Origin: an uncultured Methylomirabilota bacterium
Lineage (GTDB): Bacteria; Methylomirabilota; Methylomirabilia; Methylomirabilales; 2-02-FULL-66-22
Direction of reading: 5' to 3'
Assembly (NCBI GenBank): GCA_963705305.1
Contig: OY970067.1
Coordinates: 4,992,001 to 5,056,000, forward strand
Length of the DNA: 64,000 nucleotides
Below are positions 46,794 to 58,482 of the stretch, piece by piece. The notes under the pieces are model-generated. The model was not told the DNA's origin and did not search any database. It worked only from the letters and a program-made list of their open reading frames with translations. The translations under genes and the position numbers were made by a program. How positions within the stretch are numbered: position 1 is the first letter of the stretch; each line of letters begins with the position of its first letter.

Positions 46794-48341
46794 CTAGGGG
46801 CTGAGGAGTTCCTGCGCCAGTGCGACAAACGTCCGCACCATGACGCCCGTGGCCCCCTTGGGTTGATACCCCTTCTCCTTGTCCGTCTCGGACGTCCCGG
46901 CGATGTCCAGGTGCACCCACGGCGTCTCTCCCACGAAGCGCTGCAGGAACTTCGCCGCAGTGATGGCCCCGCCCTTCCGGCCCCCCGTGTTCTTGACCGC
47001 GGCGATGTCGCTCTTGAGCAGCTCATCGTACTCCGGATCGGTCGGCATGGGCCAGAGCTTCTCCCCGGTGGTCTTCGCAGCGCGCAGGAGGGCGTCCAGC
47101 AGTCCCTGGTCGCTGGCGAAGGCCCCGCTGGTGATCGTGCCCAGCGCCACCACGCAGGCGCCGGTGAGGGTGGCGACATCCACCAGGTGGGTCACCCCGC
47201 GAGTCCGGGCGTAGTGGAGTGCGTCCGCCAGGATCAGTCGTCCCTCCGCATCGGTATTGATCACTTCGATGGTCGTGCCGTTCATGGCCCGGAGGACATC
47301 GCCCGGCTTCAGGGCCGTGCCGCTGGGTAGGTTCTCCGTCGCCGGCACGACCCCCGTGACCCGCACGGGAAGCTTCAGCCGAGCGATGGCGCAGAGCGAT
47401 GTGATGACCGCCGCGGCCCCGGCCATATCCCCCTTCATGGTCTCCATGTTCTCCGCCGGCTTGAGAGAGATCCCGCCCGAATCAAAGGTGATGCCCTTGC
47501 CCACCAGCCCCAGGTGGGGACCGGTCGGCCGTCCGCCCCGGTACTCCAGGAGGATGAGCCGGGGCGGCTCCTGGCTGCCGCGCGCCACCCCCAGCAGGGC
47601 GCCGGCCCGCAGGCGGCGCAGCTCCGGCGGGCCCAGCACGCGACAGCGGACCCCTGCGCGGCGGGCCATCGCCGCCGCGCGGCGGCCCAGCTCGGTCGGG
47701 GTCAGGGCGTTGGCGGGCTCGTTCACCAGATCGCGGGCCGCATTGGTGGCCTCGGCCGCGATCCGCCCGCGACGGACCGCCTCGCCCAGCACCCGCAGTG
47801 TGTGCGGATCGGACTCGAGAATGGCGAGCGTCTGGATGGCCCGCTCCTCCTCGCCGCTTCCCTTGTAGCGCGTGAACCGGTAGAGGCCGAGCAGCGCGCC
47901 CTCCACCAGCGCCTGGGCGGCCTGTGCGCGGTTGAATTCGCCCATCCGGGCGAGGTGCAGCACGCTCCCGAAGCGACGCGCGCCGATCCGCCGGAGGTAC
48001 CGGGCCGTTTCCGCCGAGGCCACCCGCAGGCGATCCAGGGTGAACTCCTCCGGGCGTCCCAGGCCCGCCACCAGGATCCGGCCGGCCGGAAGCCGCCCCA
48101 GCGTGTGGATCAGGGTCTGCTCTCCCCATTTGCCCGTGGCTTCTCCCGACTGCACGAGACGGCGGATGGCGCCATCCAGGGCGGCATCCGCTGCCGCCGT
48201 GGCGCCCTCCAGGTCGCCGGCGGCGGCGGTGCGCACCGGGCGGCGAAGCGGGGCTCCCACCCGGGCCCCTTCAAACAGCCCGACCACCAGCGCGTCACCC
48301 CGGAACGCGGCGGCATCCCCCTGCACCACCCGAATGTCCAA
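46794..48341 (-). CDS. pepA: Leucyl aminopeptidase (M17)
   Basis: VGKGITFDSGG, MKGDMAG, NTDAEGRL, ATLTGA, HLDIAG; TTG start after AAGGAG. Confidence 0.93.
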   Translation of the reverse strand: MDIRVVQGDAAAFRGDALVVGLFEGARVGAPLRRPVRTAAAGDLEGATAAADAALDGAIRRLVQSGEATGKWGEQTLIHTLGRLPAGRILVAGLGRPEEFTLDRLRVASAETARYLRRIGARRFGSVLHLARMGEFNRAQAAQALVEGALLGLYRFTRYKGSGEEERAIQTLAILESDPHTLRVLGEAVRRGRIAAEATNAARDLVNEPANALTPTELGRRAAAMARRAGVRCRVLGPPELRRLRAGALLGVARGSQEPPRLILLEYRGGRPTGPHLGLVGKGITFDSGGISLKPAENMETMKGDMAGAAAVITSLCAIARLKLPVRVTGVVPATENLPSGTALKPGDVLRAMNGTTIEVINTDAEGRLILADALHYARTRGVTHLVDVATLTGACVVALGTITSGAFASDQGLLDALLRAAKTTGEKLWPMPTDPEYDELLKSDIAAVKNTGGRKGGAITAAKFLQRFVGETPWVHLDIAGTSETDKEKGYQPKGATGVMVRTFVALAQELLSP

Positions 48342-48596
48342 GGCTGGCTCCTTTCCGGCGGACGCAATCGCGCCGTCGCATTCACTCCCGGTCCGCTCCC
48401 TCCAGCGGCGTGTGGCCGCTCGCTCCATCGCCGGACCATGCCTGCCCCTTATAGCGCAGAAAGCCGAACCCGTCCAGCCCGGGCGTCGAGGACGCTTTAC
48501 ATTCGTGACGTGCCCGCGCTAGTATGGCGGCAGAATGCTTCCCTGCAGGCCGTGCTGCTTGACCTTCACCCCAGCTCCGCCAGGAGGACACCAGCG

Positions 48597-49958
48597 ATGA
48601 CCACGTGGGACGTCCCTGCACTCGTGAGCGAGGACCGCGCGCACCTACTCCACCCGTTGTACCATCCCGCCGACCACGCCGCGCCGCACATCTGGGTGCG
48701 CGGCCGCGGGGCCACCCTGACGGACGCCGCCGGGAAGGAGTTCTTGGACGGCCTGTCCTGCCTCTGGAATGTGAACGCGGGCCATGGCCGCCGGGAGCTG
48801 GCCGAGGCCGCGGCGGAGCAGATGGCCACCCTCGCCTTCTCCACCAATTACGTCGGCTCCTCCAACGTGCCGGCCATCCGGCTGGCCCGGCGGCTGATCG
48901 AGCTGGCCTACCCCAACCTAGCCGCGGTCTACTTCGCCAGCGGCGGGGCCGAGGCCAACGAGAGTGCGTTCAAGACGGCCCGCTTTTACTGGAAGACCCA
49001 GGGCCGGCCTGCCAAGGTGAAGATCATCTCCCGCCAGTACGGCTACCACGGGGTGACGCTGGCGGCCATGAGCGCCACCGCCGTCCCTGGATACGCCAAG
49101 ATGTTCGAGCCGCGCGTGCCCCACTTCATCCACACCGCCACCCCCTACGCGTACCGCTTCGAAGGGGCCGGGCCGGGCGAAACGGTGGGCCAGGCCGCGG
49201 CCCGCATGCTGGAAGAGACGCTCTTGCAGGAGGGCCCCGAGACGGTGGCTGCCGTCATCGCCGAGCCGGTGCAGGGGGCCGGTGGCATCCTCGTCCCACC
49301 GGACGACTACTTCCCACGCGTCCGGGAGATCTGCACCAAGCACGAGGTGCTCTTCATCGCCGACGAGGTCATCACCGGCTTCGGGCGCACCGGCCGCTGG
49401 TTCGCCCTGGAACGCTGGGGGGTCCAGCCCGACATCCTGGCCTTCGCCAAGGGGGTCACCAGCGGTTACCTCCCCCTGGGCGGCATCATGATCGCCCGCC
49501 CCATCTACGAGGCCATGCTGGGCGCCCCCTACGCCGACCGCTGGATGCACGCCTATACCTATTCGGGCCACGCCACCTGCTGTGCCGTGGGACTCCGCAA
49601 CCTGGAGATCATCGAGCAGGAGGGCTTGGTCGCGCGGGCCGAGGCCCGGGGCGCGCGGCTCTTGGCCGGCCTGCGGGCGGCCACGGCCGATCTGCGGGCG
49701 GTGGGGGAGGTGCGGGGCCTCGGCCTCATGGTGGCCGTCGAGCTAGTGGCCGATCGCGCGACCAAGGCCGCCTTCGACCCGGGGCTGCAGGTGATCGGAC
49801 GGATCAAGGCCGAGATGGAGGCCCGGGGGCTCTTCACCCGGTCCGTGCGGGACATCATCCTGCTGGCCCCGCCCCTGGTGATCACGGAGGCGCAGGTGGA
49901 CCGGATCGTGGAGATCGTCCGCGACAGCATCGCGGCGATCTGTCCGGAGCGAGTATAG
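48597..49958 (+). CDS. Class III PLP aminotransferase (omega-amine type)
   Basis: LWNVNAGHGR, GYHG, AEPVQGAGG, DEVITGFGRTG, AKGVTSGY; AGGAGG RBS. Confidence 0.92.
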   Translation: MTTWDVPALVSEDRAHLLHPLYHPADHAAPHIWVRGRGATLTDAAGKEFLDGLSCLWNVNAGHGRRELAEAAAEQMATLAFSTNYVGSSNVPAIRLARRLIELAYPNLAAVYFASGGAEANESAFKTARFYWKTQGRPAKVKIISRQYGYHGVTLAAMSATAVPGYAKMFEPRVPHFIHTATPYAYRFEGAGPGETVGQAAARMLEETLLQEGPETVAAVIAEPVQGAGGILVPPDDYFPRVREICTKHEVLFIADEVITGFGRTGRWFALERWGVQPDILAFAKGVTSGYLPLGGIMIARPIYEAMLGAPYADRWMHAYTYSGHATCCAVGLRNLEIIEQEGLVARAEARGARLLAGLRAATADLRAVGEVRGLGLMVAVELVADRATKAAFDPGLQVIGRIKAEMEARGLFTRSVRDIILLAPPLVITEAQVDRIVEIVRDSIAAICPERV

Positions 49959-50638: not shown

Positions 50639-51133
50639 CTATCCCTGACCGCGCTTCCCCAGCTGGCGGTCGAGCATGATCAGGGAGGGCTTGCTCTCGC
50701 CGATCATCTTGAACTGCTCCGCGATCAGGCCGGCGCTCTTCTCCTCCTCCACCTGCTCCGTGACGAACCACTGCAGAAGGACTTGGCTGGCGTAGTCGTT
50801 CTCCTTGACGGCCAGCGCGTATAGCTTGTGGATCGACTCCGTCACGCGCCGCTCGTGCTCCACCACCTGCTGAAAGATCTCCAGGGCCGACTTGAACTTC
50901 GCCGGGGGCTGGTCGATGGCCTTCAGAACCACCTGGCCGCCCCGATCGTTCACGTAGTCGAAGAACTTCATAGCGTGCGAGGTCTCCTCCTGGTATTGGA
51001 CCCGCATCCAGTGCGCCGTGCCGGGCAGGCTGTTCGTCTCGCAATGGGCCGACATGGCCAGATACAGGTAGGCCGAGTACAACTCCTTGTTGATCTGATC
51101 GTTGATCGCGTCTTGAATCGTCTTGGTCAGCAT
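50639..51133 (-). CDS. ftnA: Non-haem ferritin
   Basis: INKELYSAYLY, EETSHAMK, EHERRVT, QWFVTEQVEEE ferroxidase residues. Confidence 0.93.
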   Translation of the reverse strand: MLTKTIQDAINDQINKELYSAYLYLAMSAHCETNSLPGTAHWMRVQYQEETSHAMKFFDYVNDRGGQVVLKAIDQPPAKFKSALEIFQQVVEHERRVTESIHKLYALAVKENDYASQVLLQWFVTEQVEEEKSAGLIAEQFKMIGESKPSLIMLDRQLGKRGQG

Positions 51134-51251: not shown

Positions 51252-52610
51252 TCAGGCGGCGTTGATCATCTCATCCACACGCGGGTCGCTGGGCTTGAAC
51301 GGATCCTTGCACAGGATGGTCCGCTGGTACCGATCGTTCAGCTTGAGGTAGGACCACCCGACGTCGTACGACTTGTTCCGCTCGTTGGCGAAATTGATGA
51401 AGTCGGAGCGGACCTTGGCCCGGGTCGTCTGCGGCGGGGTGGTCATGGCTTCTTCGATCAGTGCGTCGCTGAACAGCCGGTCGACCTGTTCCTGCCGGCA
51501 GAGCATGTTGTACAGGCCCCGGTCCCGGCGGATGTCGTGGTACTGGAGGTCCAGCATGCTGATCCGCTGGTCGTCGAAGCCGATCCCCTTGCGCGCCATG
51601 TAGGACTGGATCAGCTCCTGCTTGATGACCCAGTCCAGCTCCCGCGCGCACTGCCGGGGCTCCTCGGCCAGCTTGTCCAGGATGGTCTGCCAGCGCTCGA
51701 GGAGGTCGCTCACCTGGGGGGAGGGCTCCAGGCCGGCGTAGTAGTCCAGGGCCAGCTCCAGGTACTCCCGCTGCAGCTCGATGGCGGAGAATTCCTTCCC
51801 CCGCTTCAGCCGGACCTTCCGCCGGCAGCTGGTGTCGTGGGAGATCTCCTTGATGGCCCGGACCGGATCCTCCAGGGCCAGGTCCTTCCGGATGGCCCCG
51901 TCCTCCACCATGGCCAGGACCAGGGCCGTGGTCCCCACCTTGAGGTAGGTCGTCACCTCGGACATGTTCGAATCGCCGACGATGACGTGCAGGCGCCGGT
52001 ACTTCTCCTCGTCGGCGTGGGGCTCGTCGCGGGTGTTGATGATGCCGCGCGAGCTGGTGGTGGCCCCCGAGATCTCCTGATAGATATGCTGGGCGCGCTG
52101 CGAGATGTAGTAGTGGTTGCCCAGCCGGGTCTTCAGCACCTTGCCCGCGCCGGCGAAGACCTGCCGCGTCACGAAGAAGGGAATCAGCTGTTCGGCCAGC
52201 TTGTGGAAGTTGGCCCCGCGCTCCACCAGGTAGTTCTCGTGACAGCCGTAGGTGTTGCCCACCGAGTCGGTGTTGTTCTTGAAGATGAAGATGTCGCAAT
52301 CGATGCCGTTCTCGCGCAGCTTGCGCTCCGCCGTGAGCAGGAGCTCCTCGATGACCCGCTCTCCCGCCTTGTCGTGCAGCGTGAGGTCGAAGGGGTTGTC
52401 GCACTCGGGCGTGGCGTATTCGGGATGGCAGCCGGTGTCCTGATAGAGCCGGGCCCCGTTGCGCAGGAAATCGTTGGTGCCGCGCTGGCGCGAGACGACC
52501 CGCTCGAAGAGATACCCGAGGGCGCTCTCCACCGAGAGGTTCACCCGGCCGCCGGCCGAGGAAGAGATCAGGCCGTACTCGTTCTCCAGCCCGAAAATTC
52601 GCCGCTGCAT
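51252..52610 (-). CDS. pafA: Pup-protein ligase
   Basis: RRIFGLENEYG, NGARLYQDTGCHPEYATPEC, KNNTDSVGNTYGCHENY, PPQTTRA, CKDPF; no Dop loop. Confidence 0.93.
   Translation of the reverse strand: MQRRIFGLENEYGLISSSAGGRVNLSVESALGYLFERVVSRQRGTNDFLRNGARLYQDTGCHPEYATPECDNPFDLTLHDKAGERVIEELLLTAERKLRENGIDCDIFIFKNNTDSVGNTYGCHENYLVERGANFHKLAEQLIPFFVTRQVFAGAGKVLKTRLGNHYYISQRAQHIYQEISGATTSSRGIINTRDEPHADEEKYRRLHVIVGDSNMSEVTTYLKVGTTALVLAMVEDGAIRKDLALEDPVRAIKEISHDTSCRRKVRLKRGKEFSAIELQREYLELALDYYAGLEPSPQVSDLLERWQTILDKLAEEPRQCARELDWVIKQELIQSYMARKGIGFDDQRISMLDLQYHDIRRDRGLYNMLCRQEQVDRLFSDALIEEAMTTPPQTTRAKVRSDFINFANERNKSYDVGWSYLKLNDRYQRTILCKDPFKPSDPRVDEMINAA
51522..52044. repeat. 523-bp direct repeat, copy A (inside pafA)
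   Basis: Compared line by line with 54645-55167; no mismatch found; offset 3123 bp. Confidence 0.95.
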
Positions 52611-52625
52611 GACGAGTGCGGGGGA

Positions 52626-53327
52626 TCAGGCATCCCCACTGCCCTCCTTTTCCACATAGGTCCGCAGCTCCGCCAGAGGAAGCCGTCGGAATTTCCGCCC
52701 CGGCCGCTCCCGCTCGAGGAGGGCCACTTCCAGGCTGGCCGCCTTCACCTGCTGGCTGGCCGCCGCCTCCAGGGCTCGGGTGGCCAGTTGGAGCGCGGCC
52801 TCCAGGCTGAGGCCCTCGCTGTACTTGTCGCGCAGAAAGATCTTCAGCTCCTCCGCCTGGCCGCCGATGCTCGCGTAGCCCTTCTCGTCGGCGATGCTGC
52901 CGTCGAAGGCGATCCGATACAGCTCGTTGCCGGCCGCTCCCTCCCCCACCTCCAGGACCAGGATCTCCACCTCCAGCGGCTTGATCTCCATGCTGAAGAT
53001 GTTGCCGATGACCTGGGAGTAAGCGCTGGCCAGTGATTTCGCCGTGACGTCCTCGCGACCATACGCGTACCCCTTCAGGTCGGCGTAGCGGATCCCCTCC
53101 TTGCGCAGCCGCTCGAATTCGCTGTACCTTCCCGCGCCGGCGAAGGCGATGCGGTCGTAAATCTCCGAGATCTTGTTGAGCGAGGCGCTGGGATTCTCCG
53201 CCACCATGAGCAGTCCCCGGTCGAACTCCAGGGCAATGATGGACTTCCCCTTGGCGATGCCCTTGCGGGCGTATTCCGCCTTGTCCTGCATCATCTGTTC
53301 GGGAGAGACGTAATAGGGCAGCGCCAT
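52626..53327 (-). CDS. prcA: 20S proteasome alpha subunit
   Basis: PYYVSPEQMMQDKAEYARKGIAKGKS, KISEIYDRIAF, KPLEVE. Confidence 0.95.
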   Translation of the reverse strand: MALPYYVSPEQMMQDKAEYARKGIAKGKSIIALEFDRGLLMVAENPSASLNKISEIYDRIAFAGAGRYSEFERLRKEGIRYADLKGYAYGREDVTAKSLASAYSQVIGNIFSMEIKPLEVEILVLEVGEGAAGNELYRIAFDGSIADEKGYASIGGQAEELKIFLRDKYSEGLSLEAALQLATRALEAAASQQVKAASLEVALLERERPGRKFRRLPLAELRTYVEKEGSGDA

Positions 53328-53402
53328 CGTTTGGCCCTCAGTGGTGGTGGCCCCGGCCGCCGGGAAGCGGATGTCGTCCTTCCCGCGCCCCGACGTGTCT
53401 CA

Positions 53403-53526
53403 GGGGCTCGCTGAAAAACTCGTTTGGCCCAGGCTGCGCAGACAGAACCACATGCGCGGGGACCCATCCGCAGGATGGGCACCCATCAGATGGGTACCCG
53501 GCAGATGGTCCTTTTTCAGCAGCCCG
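53403..53526. mobile_element. MITE-like element, copy 3 (degenerate), between prcB and prcA
   Basis: GGCTCGCTGAAAAA...GCCCAGGCTGC...GATGGGTACCCGGCAGATGGTCCTTTTTCAGCAGCCCG, then TTAG holding the prcB stop. Confidence 0.7.
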
Positions 53527-54324
53527 TTAGGCCGATCGGCGGGCGTTCACCAGGGTCTGGCAAACGGAGGCCACGCGATCCTCGGGAACATCCTGGGTCC
53601 CCTGCCGGGTCACCAGCTTGACAGTCGGAAAGATCCCCCGGACGAAATCCGGCCCGCCGGTCCCCCGGTCCTCGTCCGCGGCGTCGTACAGCGCCTCCAG
53701 ACCCGTCGCGATCGCTTCGGCCTCTTCCAGGCCCAGCCGGTAGAGCTTCTTGAGGCTGGAGCGGGCGTCCTTGCCGCCGGAGCCGATGGCGTAGTATTCG
53801 GCTTCGTCGTATCGGCCGCCAGCCACGTCGTACTTGTAGATGCGCCCCTCGTCACGGCGCAGGTCGTACCCGACGAAGATCGGCACGACCACCAGACCTT
53901 GCATGGCCAGGGGGAGGTTCGCCCGCACCATCTGGGCCAGGCGGTTGGCCTTGCCCTCCAGGCTCAGCCCCAGGCCTTCCAATTTCTCGTAGTGGGCCAG
54001 CTCGGTCTGGAAGAGCCGGACCATCTCGAGGCACGGTCCCGCGGCGCCCGCGATGGCGATGGCCGAGTGCTCGTCGGTCGCATACACCTTCTCGATCCGC
54101 CGCGAGGCCACCTGGTAGCCTTCGGTGGCCTGCCGGTCCCCGGCGATCACCACCCCCTGGCGGTACGTGAGGGCCAGCACGGTGGTCCCGGTGGGAACGG
54201 GCGGGGCGGTCTCGTGCGCCTCTCGCCCCTCCGCAGCGAACTGGGGCACGAGCTGCGGTTGGCGCTGGCGGACCAGGTCGAAGAAGCTGGAGCTGGCGTC
54301 GTTTTGGAAGAATGAAGGCTCCAC
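53527..54324 (-). CDS. prcB: 20S proteasome beta subunit with propeptide
   Basis: SSSFFDL propeptide; G|TTVLA processing site; AGDRQAT, IGSGG, DRGTGGPD; GTG start after AGGAGG. Confidence 0.95.
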   Translation of the reverse strand: MEPSFFQNDASSSFFDLVRQRQPQLVPQFAAEGREAHETAPPVPTGTTVLALTYRQGVVIAGDRQATEGYQVASRRIEKVYATDEHSAIAIAGAAGPCLEMVRLFQTELAHYEKLEGLGLSLEGKANRLAQMVRANLPLAMQGLVVVPIFVGYDLRRDEGRIYKYDVAGGRYDEAEYYAIGSGGKDARSSLKKLYRLGLEEAEAIATGLEALYDAADEDRGTGGPDFVRGIFPTVKLVTRQGTQDVPEDRVASVCQTLVNARRSA

Positions 54325-54338
54325 GGAACGGACCCCTC

Positions 54339-55823
54339 CTAGCCGGCCAGCCGCTCCAGCAGCTCGGCCACACTCTCCGATCGCTCCAGAACCTCCCCCA
54401 CCAGCTTCCGCGTGCCCCGTCCGGGCTCCGCCATGGGAATCCGCTTGACCGTGGCGTCGCCCGTGTCCAGCAGCACGGAGCTCCAGCTCGCCCCGTAGAC
54501 CTGGGCGCCGAATTTTTGAAGACACATGCCCCGGAAGTACGCCCGCGTATCCGTCGGCGGATGGCCGGCGGCCCAGAGGATCTCGTCATCGCTCAGCAGC
54601 CGATCCACGTATCCTTCCCGCTCCATCCGGTAGTAGATGCCTTTGTCCCGGCGGATGTCGTGGTACTGGAGGTCCAGCATGCTGATCCGCTGGTCGTCGA
54701 AGCCGATCCCCTTGCGCGCCATGTAGGACTGGATCAGCTCCTGCTTGATGACCCAGTCCAGCTCCCGCGCGCACTGCCGGGGCTCCTCGGCCAGCTTGTC
54801 CAGGATGGTCTGCCAGCGCTCGAGGAGGTCGCTCACCTGGGGGGAGGGCTCCAGGCCGGCGTAGTAGTCCAGGGCCAGCTCCAGGTACTCCCGCTGCAGC
54901 TCGATGGCGGAGAATTCCTTCCCCCGCTTCAGCCGGACCTTCCGCCGGCAGCTGGTGTCGTGGGAGATCTCCTTGATGGCCCGGACCGGATCCTCCAGGG
55001 CCAGGTCCTTCCGGATGGCCCCGTCCTCCACCATGGCCAGGACCAGGGCCGTGGTCCCCACCTTGAGGTAGGTCGTCACCTCGGACATGTTCGAATCGCC
55101 GACGATGACGTGCAGGCGCCGGTACTTCTCCTCGTCGGCGTGGGGCTCGTCGCGGGTGTTGATGATGGGCCGCTTGGCCATCGTGTCCAGCCCGATCAGG
55201 GTCTCGAAGAAATCGGCCCGCTGGGAGAGCTGGAAGCGGCAGGGCTCCGTGCCGTTCTCGAAGCCGACCTTCCCCGAACCGCAGAAGACGATCCGAGAGA
55301 CCAGGAAGGTCGTGAGGCCCTCCACCAGCTTGTCGAACGGGACGCTGCGGGCCATCAGGTAGTTCTCGTGATATCCGTAGCTGTTTCCCTTCCCGTCGCT
55401 GTTGTTCTTGTAGATCATTAGCTGCTGAGAGGGTGGAAGCTTGCGGTTGGCCGCCTCGCGGCACTGGTCCGCCACGCGCTCCCCGGCCTTCTCGAAGAGC
55501 ACCAGGTCCCGGGCGTTGGTGGTCTCGGGGGTGGAGTATTCGGGGTGCGCCCCGTCCACGTACAGCCGGCCGCCATTGGTCAGGATCTTATTGATCGCCC
55601 GGTTGTCCTGCTGGCTGGGCCGCTCCCGCTCGCCGCTGGCCTCGAACCCTCGGGCGTCCAGCAGCGGATTCTCCCCCGCATAATCCCACATGACGCGGGG
55701 GGGCTGAGTCATCGGCAGCGCGTTGATGAGGAAGATGGAACTGCCTACGGGATCGAAGCCGGCGCCCTCCCGCGCCGTGATCCCGAATTCGGTCTCGCTC
55801 CCCATGATCTTGTCGATCGCCAT
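54339..55823 (-). CDS. dop: Pup deamidase/depupylase
   Basis: GSETEFG, Dop loop WDYAGENPLLDARG, NGGRLYVDGAHPEYSTPE, KNNSDGKG, PPTDTRAYFRG, ASWSS, EPGRGT. Confidence 0.93.
   Translation of the reverse strand: MAIDKIMGSETEFGITAREGAGFDPVGSSIFLINALPMTQPPRVMWDYAGENPLLDARGFEASGERERPSQQDNRAINKILTNGGRLYVDGAHPEYSTPETTNARDLVLFEKAGERVADQCREAANRKLPPSQQLMIYKNNSDGKGNSYGYHENYLMARSVPFDKLVEGLTTFLVSRIVFCGSGKVGFENGTEPCRFQLSQRADFFETLIGLDTMAKRPIINTRDEPHADEEKYRRLHVIVGDSNMSEVTTYLKVGTTALVLAMVEDGAIRKDLALEDPVRAIKEISHDTSCRRKVRLKRGKEFSAIELQREYLELALDYYAGLEPSPQVSDLLERWQTILDKLAEEPRQCARELDWVIKQELIQSYMARKGIGFDDQRISMLDLQYHDIRRDKGIYYRMEREGYVDRLLSDDEILWAAGHPPTDTRAYFRGMCLQKFGAQVYGASWSSVLLDTGDATVKRIPMAEPGRGTRKLVGEVLERSESVAELLERLAG
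54645..55167. repeat. 523-bp direct repeat, copy B (inside dop)
   Basis: Identical to 51522-52044. Confidence 0.95.
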
Positions 55824-55941: not shown

Positions 55942-57760
55942 TCAGAGGTAGTGACCCGTGGTGATGGTCTCGACCTTGCGCGGCTTCTTCTGCTCGCGAT
56001 CGAACACCGGACGAACGTGCACGATCCGCTCGCCCCGTCGTCCGGCAATCTTGGCCCAATCATCGGGGTTGGTCGTATTCGGAAGGTCCTCGTTCTCCCG
56101 GAACTCGGCTTTGACGGCCTCGATGAGGTCGCTCGCGGTGATGCCCTTCACCCCGCTGGTGATCATCCGCTTCACCGCGGCCTTCTTGGCCCGCGTGCAG
56201 ACGCTTTCGATCAGCGCCCCGCTGACGAAGTCCTTGAAGTAGAGCGTCTCCTTCTCGCCGGAGGCGTAGGTCACTTCGAGGAAGCGGTGGGCGTCGTCGG
56301 TCTCGAACATCTCGCCCAGGGCCGACTCGATCAGGCTGGCGACCGTGGCCGCCGGATCGTCCCGTTGCGCCGCCAGGGTGTCCGGGGCCAGCGGAAGGTC
56401 CGGGGTGAGGTACTTGGAGAAGATCTCCCGAGCGGCGTCCCGGTTGGGACGTTCGATCCGGATCTTGACGTCGAAGCGGCCGGGACGGAGAACGGCGGGA
56501 TCGATGAGGTCCTGCCGGTTGCTGGCCCCGATGACGACCACGTGGCGCAGCCCCTCCACCCCGTCCAGCTCGGCCAGGAACTGGGGCACGATGGTGGACT
56601 CGACGTCCGAGGAGATGCCGGATCCGCGCGTCCGGAACAGGGAGTCCATCTCGTCGAAGAAGACCACCACCGGGGCCCCGGCGCTGGCCTTCTCCCGGGC
56701 GCGGGCGAACACTTCGCGGATCTTGCGCTCCGTCTCCCCCACGTACTTATTGAGCAGCTCGGGACCCTTGACGTTGAGGAAGTAGGCCGGGCTGGGCGTG
56801 CCGGTCTGCCGGCTCAGCTGCTGGGCCAGCGCATTCGCCACCGCCTTGGCGATGAGCGTCTTCCCGCAGCCGGGCGGCCCGTACAGCAGGACCCCCTTGG
56901 GTGGGGCGAGCTTGTGGGCGGCGAAGTGCTCGGCGTAGAGGACCGGCAGCTCGATGGCGTCGCGGATCTGCTCGATCTGCGCCGCCAGCCCCCCGACGTC
57001 GTTGTAGGTGATGTTGGGGACTTCTTCCAGCACCAGGTCTTCCACCTCGGCCTTGGGCAGCTTCTCCAGCACGACCCCGGCCCGCGCATCCAGCCGCAGA
57101 TGGTCTCCCACCTGGAGCGGCACGTCGCGCAGCTGGGCCGAGAGCTCCACCACCCGCTCTTCGTCCGCACGGAGGCTGACGATGGCCCGCCCCTCGTCCA
57201 ACCGATCCTTCAGGCGCACCACCTCTCCCTGCAGGTCCTGGCCTCCCACGTCCACCACGTTCAGGGCCTCGTTCAGGACGACCTCTTGGCCCCGGTACAG
57301 CTCGCCGCTCTTGACCATGGGGGCAATGTTCACCTTCATCTTCCGGCCGCCGGTCCAGAACGTCCGCCGTGCTGTCTGGGTAATGCTGCAGGAAGATGCC
57401 GTAACTGGACGGAGGCGCGGCCAGCTTGTCCACCTCGGCGCGCAAGGAGGCGATCTGCTCCTTGGCCTGGTTCAGCGCGGCCACCAGGCGATCGTTCTGC
57501 TGCTGGGCTCGATCCAGCTGTTCCCGCGACTGGCTCAGCTTGTTGCGCAGGAACTCGAATTCCTTGGGGGTCTGTTCCAGCCGTCGCCGCAGGTGGAACA
57601 TCTCCTCTTCCAGCGCCTTGACCTGAGCTTGAAGATTCTCGATATCCATGGCATCTTGACCGAACGCCCGCGCGAGGGCGGGATCTGACTTCGAAGGTTG
57701 CCCGGAAAGCTTCTGCATCGTCTTTCGCAGCGAGTTGAGCCTGGTCTCGGAATCCCCCAT
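55942..57760 (-). CDS. arc: Proteasome AAA+ ATPase ARC/Mpa with a one-base frameshift at ~57360
   Basis: N-terminal coiled coil and [38 protein letters not shown]-terminal GHYL; deleting one base at 57358-57366 gives [13 protein letters not shown]. Confidence 0.93.
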
Positions 57761-58284: not shown

Positions 58285-58482
58285 TCACTGGCCGCCCCGC
58301 TGCACATAACTCTTGACGAACTCTTCGGCATTCTCTTCCAGGACGTCGTCGATCTCGTCCACCAGCTTGTCCATATCCTCTTTCAGCTTCTTGCCCTTCT
58401 CCGTCGCCGCGGAGCGCGTTTGCTCACCCTCTCCCGCCGGCGGCCCCTCGGTTCGACGCTGCTTTCGCTCTTGCTCCGGCAT
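58285..58482 (-). CDS. pup: Prokaryotic ubiquitin-like protein Pup (GGQ type)
   Basis: DKLVDEIDDVLEENAEEFVKSYVQRGGQ; AGGAGG RBS. Confidence 0.95.
   Translation of the reverse strand: MPEQERKQRRTEGPPAGEGEQTRSAATEKGKKLKEDMDKLVDEIDDVLEENAEEFVKSYVQRGGQ

Follow-up and report, generated by a model that had tools for sequence, protein, structure and literature searches.

Probable recurrent gene conversion of a central module shared by the Pup ligase and depupylase genes of Methylomirabilales

Concerted evolution of bacterial paralogues is known from the tufA and tufB genes of Salmonella and E. coli and from the rRNA operons, in which RecA-dependent gene conversion keeps the copies within a genome identical while species diverge; homologous, nonreciprocal exchange is the accepted cause there. 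In eukaryotes, the RHD/RHCE and opsin genes undergo segmental conversion between functionally diverged paralogues, with tracts bounded by divergently selected regions and a mosaic of concerted and divergent segments as the outcome. According to the available portions of a 2008 paper by Tsuru and Kobayashi (PMC2568036), the unit of homogenization in a tandem cluster of lipoprotein paralogues does not coincide with the gene. For the Pup ligase PafA and the depupylase/deamidase Dop of Actinobacteria, the available excerpts of Hecht et al. 2020 (PMC7947786) report that Dop can be turned into a ligase by 20 substitutions together with the Dop-loop's removal. Here, we analyzed a stretch of 64,000 nt (the window) from an uncultured Methylomirabilota bacterium (assembly GCA_963705305.1, contig OY970067.1, positions 4,992,001 to 5,056,000), in which pafA and dop flank the 20S proteasome genes prcA and prcB and share an internal tract of 523 identical nucleotides. 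From comparisons of sequences across the order Methylomirabilales, we consider it very likely that this tract represents a scaffold module undergoing recurrent intrachromosomal gene conversion, that is, concerted evolution, throughout the order.

A register scan at an offset of 3123 nt demonstrated that positions 51522-52044 in pafA and 54645-55167 in dop match in a single unbroken run with no mismatch, and a general repeat finder gave the same result. In the whole genome (one contig of 5,645,311 nt), the tract is present in exactly two copies. The shared peptide detected by BLASTP comprises 174 residues, PafA 190-363 and Dop 220-393. When nucleotide identity between the two genes was calculated in 20-codon bins, it was 50% ahead of the tract, 75% in the bin across the left edge, and 100% in eight bins and then fell to 63%, 51%, and 42%; the flanks show ordinary paralogue-level similarity. 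An earlier note on this DNA had described the mismatch-free match, including its synonymous positions, the 174 identical residues, and tract ends lying in motifs common to both families (IINTRDEPHAD and LDLQYHD), and all of these observations held. A chance match is excluded, because among 35 pafA/dop pairs sampled outside Methylomirabilales no exact match exceeded 35 nt.

Based on family models and on discriminating residues, the two genes are identified as encoding a PafA-family ligase and a Dop-family depupylase/deamidase. Each protein passed its own NCBIfam cutoff and failed that of the other family, with PafA scoring 419.8 bits on the Dop model TIGR03688 (cutoff, 492.3) and Dop scoring 399.2 bits on the PafA model TIGR03686 (cutoff, 551.3); the diverged flanks keep family-specific features, as the earlier note had described. 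PafA lacks the Dop-loop, has one residue more than Dop behind the catalytic Asp, and carries a PafA-type α-loop, HIYQEISGATTSS, that retains five of the nine PafA residues tabulated by Hecht et al. (Table 1). In the alignment of the catalytic-Asp region, PafA reads LYQDTGCHPEYATPE versus LYVD-GAHPEYSTPE in Dop, PafA residue 43 being aligned with Dop residue 75. In Dop, the Dop-loop consists of approximately 30 extra residues ahead of residue 75, including a Trp (VMWDY), and the α-loop, FFETLIGLDTMAK, has the Dop-type E, G, L, and K positions. The encoded Pup ends in GGQ, and therefore a deamidase is expected to be needed. As far as the available text of PMC7947786 goes, the actinobacterial pair has the same families, fold, and operon partners (arc, prcB, prcA, and pup with GGQ) and the same distinguishing features, namely, the Dop-loop, the α-loop, the neighbors of the catalytic Asp, and one position in the C-terminal domain, all of which lie in the flanks here. 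However, its central region is only 37 to 60% identical at the protein level and contains no long exact match, in contrast to the 100% nucleotide identity in the window, and pup is located upstream of arc here rather than between dop and prcB, which is its position in mycobacteria.

To place the tract in its lineage, 41 genomes of the same genus and order were searched for PafA, with matches in 34, and every case with both genes on one contig was taken, which gave 20 species pairs including the window. Four loci were not used for the pairs: in G017 the end of the contig truncates dop, the contig of G071 lacks dop, and those of G001 and G018 are odd (described below). Relatives do not show ordinary divergence across this region. 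Instead, the tract was at least 98% identical and in the same position in 13 of the 20 species pairs, and it was decayed in the other seven (about 70 to 96%). Identity was 100% in seven genomes (G000, G016, G015, G005, G034, G023, and G043), 99.6 to 99.8% in five (G006, G020, G039, G013, and G031), and 98.2% in G026, followed by 96.5% (G010), 91% (G096), 86.5% (G022), 83% (G002), 75% (G025), and about 61 to 88%, depending on the bin (G009 and G029). One of the relatives, G043, is a second closed, one-contig genome with an exact tract of 510 nt; thus, the finding is independent of any one assembly or assembler. The tract is a discrete block with sharp edges that are reproducible among the 14 pairs with at least 96.5% identity: the last mismatch ahead of it falls at pafA nt 566-570, and dense mismatches begin again from pafA nt 1077-1090. 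Exact patches of 98 nt at the left edge of the otherwise 86% identical tract of G022 and of 78 nt in the 91% identical tract of G096 suggest that shorter, partial conversion events occur too. Some relatives showed additional peculiarities. In G020, a relative in seven contigs (contig C3; loci L036 and L145), dop has a 1-nt insertion inside the 99.6% tract and arc is spread over three frames, which suggests an indel-prone assembly and not gene loss, and dop of G010 also has a 1-nt indel, located in its 96.5% tract. With the queries used, neither a PafA/Dop match nor prcA was found in one genome of the same genus (G012; 93% complete), and no ATPase there exceeded the family cutoff.

The tract differs considerably between genomes, with a mean nucleotide identity of 76% and a minimum of 64%. 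The synonymous divergence (dS) of the tract between genomes, calculated by the Nei-Gojobori method (NG86), was about 0.76 to 0.79, while the within-genome medians of both dS and the nonsynonymous divergence (dN) were 0. Between species, dN/dS was 0.26 to 0.28 for the tract, compared with 0.07 (pafA) and 0.15 (dop) for the N-terminal flank (N-flank) and 0.21 to 0.23 for the C-terminal flank (C-flank); the module is constrained, yet within the N-terminal domain it is the part with more plasticity. The earlier note had proposed gene conversion and suggested separate trees for the tract and the flanks, and these trees agree with that proposal, with grouping by genome for the tract copies and by gene for the flanks. 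For the IQ-TREE analysis, 15 genomes (30 rows) were used; G020, G010, and G029 were omitted due to frameshifts or a partial dop, and G043 and G096 were not in the alignment. In the tract tree, pafA was sister to the dop of its own genome in all 15 cases (bootstrap values of 93 to 100, or identical rows), and a tree with the pafA copies held together was rejected in the approximately unbiased (AU) test (difference in log likelihood, 1114; p-AU, 0.0005). In the N-flank tree, pafA and dop were separated with support of 100/100, and the C-flank tree, obtained with FastTree, was split by gene as well. Even the decayed pairs in G002, G009, G022, and G025 remained sisters in the tract tree. Because the substitutions shared by the two copies of a genome place each pair on a stem of its own, at least 13 lineage-specific rehomogenizations are needed. 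In G025 and G029, which belong to one family, the dop copies grouped together and the pafA copies did likewise (tract; FastTree), and therefore the last conversion there predates the split of these two species.

The direction of the original transfer is equivocal. The earlier note regarded the tract as more PafA-like, and a protein tree with 13 outgroup pairs did place it on the PafA side. However, the NCBIfam scores of the tract alone slightly favored Dop (217 bits, versus 206 bits for PafA), and so did the pairwise identities to the nearest outgroups (59 to 61% to Dop and 55 to 59% to PafA).

Outside the order, the tract was not found. Among 17 pairs from f9 and f10, two sister families in the same class, no exact match exceeded 35 nt, and none exceeded 27 nt in 18 outgroup pairs (7 labelled KSB3/Moduliflexus, 8 Actinomycetota, 1 Rokuibacteriota, 1 labelled Acidoferrum, and 1 labelled Woesearchaeota); in the Actinomycetota and other outgroups sampled, the central region was 37 to 60% identical at the protein level. 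One pair from f10 (L125, on contig C10 of G072) had its identity mildly raised, to 68 to 85%, over the whole tract region, other sister-family pairs being at about 50 to 80%, possibly a trace left by an old conversion of its own. For six of the seven family codes in the order, the tract was identical, was decayed, or coincided with a contig break, and in the seventh (f5) only a C-terminal pafA fragment was found. The family-code tallies count two genomes flagged as unpublished (G057 and G080), and no sequence-level claim rests on either. This distribution points to a process that began at or before the base of Methylomirabilales, after the split from f9 and f10.

To see what the shared module consists of, we modeled the PafA of the window with AlphaFold2 (27-sequence alignment; mean predicted local distance difference test score, 87.7; predicted template modeling score, 0.91). 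Within PafA 190-363, the model has strands at 191-194 and 204-209, a small hairpin, and helices at 218-236, 249-258, 276-292, 298-316, 318-321, 326-341, and 348-356. In this model, the module is a scaffold in which the conserved IINTRDEPH loop and two cradle strands of the active site are backed by the helical bundle. The layout agrees with the available passages of a hydrogen-deuterium exchange study of Corynebacterium glutamicum PafA (PMC12053664), which place β7 and the preceding loop in the active site and describe 260-343 as "peripheral helices" before the C-terminal domain. The positions that switch Dop to a ligase are given in the accessible text of Hecht et al. (PMC7947786), in Mycobacterium smegmatis numbering, as PafA 30-67, the α-loop at 174-186, and 418; near the tract, the numbering of the window PafA is that of M. 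smegmatis plus 1, as judged from the shared IINTR motif. All 20 switching positions and the Dop-loop, as listed there, map outside PafA 190-363. Thus, the suggestion of the earlier note that ligase versus hydrolase specificity resides outside the module fits the published map as far as it is accessible. The α-loop ends at residue 187 of the window PafA, and the tract starts three codons later, at residue 190; the ends of the tract match the boundary of specificity established by experiment. Similarity between the two genes is lowest in the 20 codons ahead of the tract, with 41 to 56% identity in all 18 pairs that were binned. The tract includes the arginines equivalent to M. smegmatis R193, the invariant Arg of the INTRDEPH loop, and R204, both of which are named as substrate-recognition residues of PafA in the available part of PMC10465538; R193 is identical in both enzymes, and its orientation differs because of the α-loop (Hecht et al., PMC7947786, same excerpts). 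The part of the Pup groove that is named in the accessible portion of PMC5952411, the S126 loop of C. glutamicum PafA, falls in the N-flank, outside the tract, and the accessible passages on PafA name no groove residue within the tract.

These observations are best accommodated by a mechanism in which pafA and dop, which have the same orientation and lie 3.1 kb apart, would repeatedly copy a central segment of about 510 to 523 nt onto each other. The exchange would be homologous, nonreciprocal recombination, a mechanism suggested by the pattern and presumably RecA dependent. The segment encodes a scaffold used alike by both enzymes, and the parts that set specificity (the N-terminal cradle with the neighborhood of the catalytic Asp, the Dop-loop, the α-loop immediately upstream, and the C-terminal domain), all outside it, evolve separately. 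The left edge may be held because heteroduplex could not extend into the strongly diverged flank and also because homogenization of the α-loop would destroy one of the activities, so that such an event would be purged. At the right edge, the diverged stretch into the C-terminal domain would fix the position. Once the copies have diverged enough, conversion would fade and the tract would decay, as in several of the species examined.

Several points weigh against this interpretation. The exact identity in the window is that of the assembly. Among public sequencing runs, no RNA run with this DNA was found, and the one DNA run found, with a small share of it, yielded 11 pieces of about 150 to 275 nt, none of which mapped to either tract copy or spanned a joint. 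Additionally, the proteasome ATPase gene arc of the window has a 1-nt frameshift without counterpart in relatives, which could mean that residual indel errors are present. The nucleotide alignment showed an extra T at approximately 57359-57360 (GACGTTCTGG here versus GACG-TCTGG in three congeners), which puts the N-terminal coiled coil and the AAA body in different frames, while arc is read through in one frame in five relatives (G006, G005, G043, G013, and G039); the break is either a real pseudogene or a residual assembly indel error. A few true differences between copies this similar could be lost in polishing, and short-read assemblers may round an identity of about 98 to 99% up to 100% in some relatives. 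The conserved motifs at the edges might contribute as homology anchors, but the case for this is weak. In the sister families, exact runs were 8 to 35 nt at the left edge (16 pairs) and 11 to 33 nt at the right edge (the 14 pairs that reach it), compared with 16 to 27 nt elsewhere, so that the edge runs were no longer than those at some internal motifs. Finally, neutral and selected homogenization would both be compatible with the data, and the recombination pathway is deduced from the pattern.

The missing read coverage and the frameshift in arc, absent from relatives, could also be taken to mean that the two copies truly differ and were collapsed to one consensus by assembly or polishing. 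We nevertheless find this hardly credible, since the same tract is present at the same coordinates in 13 of the 20 species, whose many independent assemblies include another closed genome, ordinary pafA/dop divergence (about 60%) is too great for cross-mapping or collapse, decayed intermediates exist, and contigs break at the tract in 18 drafts. The inclusion of synonymous sites in the identity might instead be attributed to purifying selection at the nucleotide level, with an embedded RNA or an overlapping element keeping the copies identical without recombination. The chance of this is negligible: only the copies within a genome match, the tract being about 76% identical between species with a dS of about 0.8, and the tract tree groups the copies by genome. 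Divergence between genomes already refutes such an explanation. A more serious contender, although still an unlikely one, is that conversion itself is favored because the surface that both enzymes offer to a shared partner (Pup or another member of the system) must be identical, homogenization keeping the ligase and the depupylase matched while the partner evolves. The persistence of the shared state across the whole order, with the many lineage-specific rehomogenizations noted above, is consistent with this, as is the fairly fast evolution of the tract relative to the N-flank, by which the copies would drift apart quickly without conversion, and the tract does hold the R193 and R204 equivalents. 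However, the tract is decayed in 7 of 20 species, with both genes still open in most cases, and therefore identity is not required; the sister families and Actinomycetota function with central regions that are 37 to 60% identical at the protein level, and the S126 loop of the Pup groove lies outside the tract. In a related and similarly doubtful proposal, the shared module would be a selected "common part" that locks the ligase and the depupylase to one scaffold and partner-docking surface and so balances tagging and untagging while the module evolves quickly, with occasional excision of a circle as a bolder corollary. If so, lineages escaping conversion would be uncoupling the two enzymes, and, if the corollary holds, excised proteasome circles would give rise to subpopulations without the system.

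For a crossover between the repeats, the earlier note had also considered a recombinational switch or just a liability. As a switch, crossing over would excise a circle with the 3' end of dop, prcB, prcA, and the 5' end of pafA and leave a Dop-N/PafA-C chimera, turning the system off or rewiring it. The geometry permits this: a crossover removes 3123 nt (3 × 1041), leaves an in-frame Dop-N/PafA-C gene, and keeps pup. The size and the reading frame were thus as first described, but the excised piece holds more than prcB and prcA, as it also includes the dop 3' and pafA 5' ends. Contigs with the corresponding joins exist as well. Contig C348 of G001 (L105, 266-1665) is colinear with the window across the dop-N/pafA-C join and into the downstream genes, with a frameshifting deletion of roughly 25 to 45 nt inside the tract, and prcA was not found in the G001 bin, which is 93% complete. 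Locus L076 (1443-2888) is a clean in-frame Dop-N/PafA-C chimera, and contig C331 of G018 (L022; 3143 nt, the whole contig) is a circularly permuted loop with the reciprocal pafA-N/tract/dop-C join. However, such contigs are permitted paths through a graph in which an exact repeat exceeds the read length, and the draft that yielded L076 also contains a separate loop contig (L081), so we rejected the chimeric contigs as real deletions. In 18 of 69 public loci, the contigs were 2.6 to 3.4 kb long, started inside the dop tract, and ended inside the pafA tract, with terminal overlaps of 89 to 141 nt in 4 of the 18, and many other contigs stopped inside the tract. Loop contigs of this kind are typical of short-read assembly where reads are too short to span an exact repeat. 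The chimeric and loop contigs are probably walks of the assembler through the repeat, though real deletion or circle products would look alike. In addition, no recombinase domain was found among the 11 neighboring frames scanned, and the loss would be irreversible since the repeats are direct. Overall, we found no evidence for a switch and consider it highly improbable.

The coordinates of the locus are collected in Table 1. The prcB open frame (332 amino acids) extends up to 54525, and the TIGR03690 match begins at residue 110; prcB would start just past the dop stop. The translation of this frame includes the propeptide-like sequence SSSFFDLVRQRQPQLVP. Directly downstream of pafA is a ferritin-like gene (50639-51133, minus strand), and beyond it are genes for an M17 leucyl aminopeptidase and a class-III aminotransferase (46794-48428, minus strand, and 47514-49958, plus strand). 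Upstream of pup, we found genes for a MoCF-biosynthesis domain protein, a metallo-beta-lactamase-fold protein, and a NUBPL/ParA-type ATPase.

Table 1. Features of the pafA-dop locus, with positions numbered from the first nucleotide of the window
Feature	Position	Strand	Length, match, or score
pafA (Pup ligase)	51252..52610	-	452 amino acids; TIGR03686, 572.2 bits (cutoff, 551.3)
Putative conversion tract, pafA copy (codons 190-363)	51522..52044	-	523-nt exact match
prcA (20S proteasome alpha subunit)	52626..53327	-	233 amino acids; TIGR03691, 306.5 bits (cutoff, 139)
prcB (20S proteasome beta subunit)	53527 to ~54333	-	TIGR03690, 309.4 bits
dop (depupylase/deamidase)	54339..55823	-	494 amino acids; TIGR03688, 573.8 bits (cutoff, 492.3)
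Putative conversion tract, dop copy (codons 220-393)	54645..55167	-	exact match to 51522-52044
arc/mpa (proteasome ATPase), frame-broken	55942..57760	-	TIGR03689, 668 bits over 55942-57339
pup	58285..58482	-	65 amino acids, C-terminal GGQ; TIGR03687, 61.5 bits (over cutoff)

Gene conversion between bacterial paralogues is known; what differs here is that it concerns only an internal module, that the two enzymes act in opposition on one tag, that the edges match the boundary of specificity known from experiment, and that the state persists across an order. The tuf genes and rRNA operons are copies with the same function that are homogenized over their full length, whereas here only an internal module of two opposing enzymes is concerned, with edges fixed across the order. 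Unlike the RHD/RHCE and opsin genes, the present case is a bacterial operon with a ligase/hydrolase pair acting on the same tag and direct repeats that flank essential partner genes. The lipoprotein cluster of Tsuru and Kobayashi, as described in the available portions of their paper, is similar in that neighboring same-strand paralogues are involved and the recombining unit is a segment and not the open reading frame, but it concerns lipoproteins within one species, in contrast to a module of a catalytic scaffold over many species and families. In a full-text literature search with the topics gene conversion, concerted evolution, homogenization, and Methylomirabilis pupylation, no paper on pafA/dop conversion was found, and the accessible text of Hecht et al. 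(PMC7947786) mentions NC10 only as a phylum with sporadic homologues.

The shared tract amounts to a natural domain-swap experiment in many species, in which the central 174 residues of the Pup ligase and the depupylase are interchangeable, and therefore reaction specificity must reside in the approximately 190 to 220 N-terminal and 90 to 100 C-terminal residues. As a separate line of support, this swap agrees with and extends the map that Hecht et al. obtained by mutagenesis, to the extent that it is accessible (PMC7947786). The locus is also well suited to studies of how conversion tracts are limited by selection and by sequence divergence, the edges having been held for the lifetime of the order. 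There are practical consequences as well. Draft assemblies break or misjoin at this locus, as seen in the 18 loop contigs, the two Dop-N/PafA-C contigs, and the one contig with the reciprocal junction, and therefore bins can lose the proteasome genes and databases can acquire chimeric "genes". For this clade, both the trees of PafA and Dop and naming by family models are distorted, with cross-family scores of about 400 to 420 bits because of the shared module. Finally, the direct repeats of 0.5 kb flank prcB and prcA, and the locus is therefore deletion-prone; its persistence argues for selection on the proteasome in these methane- and nitrite-cycling bacteria.

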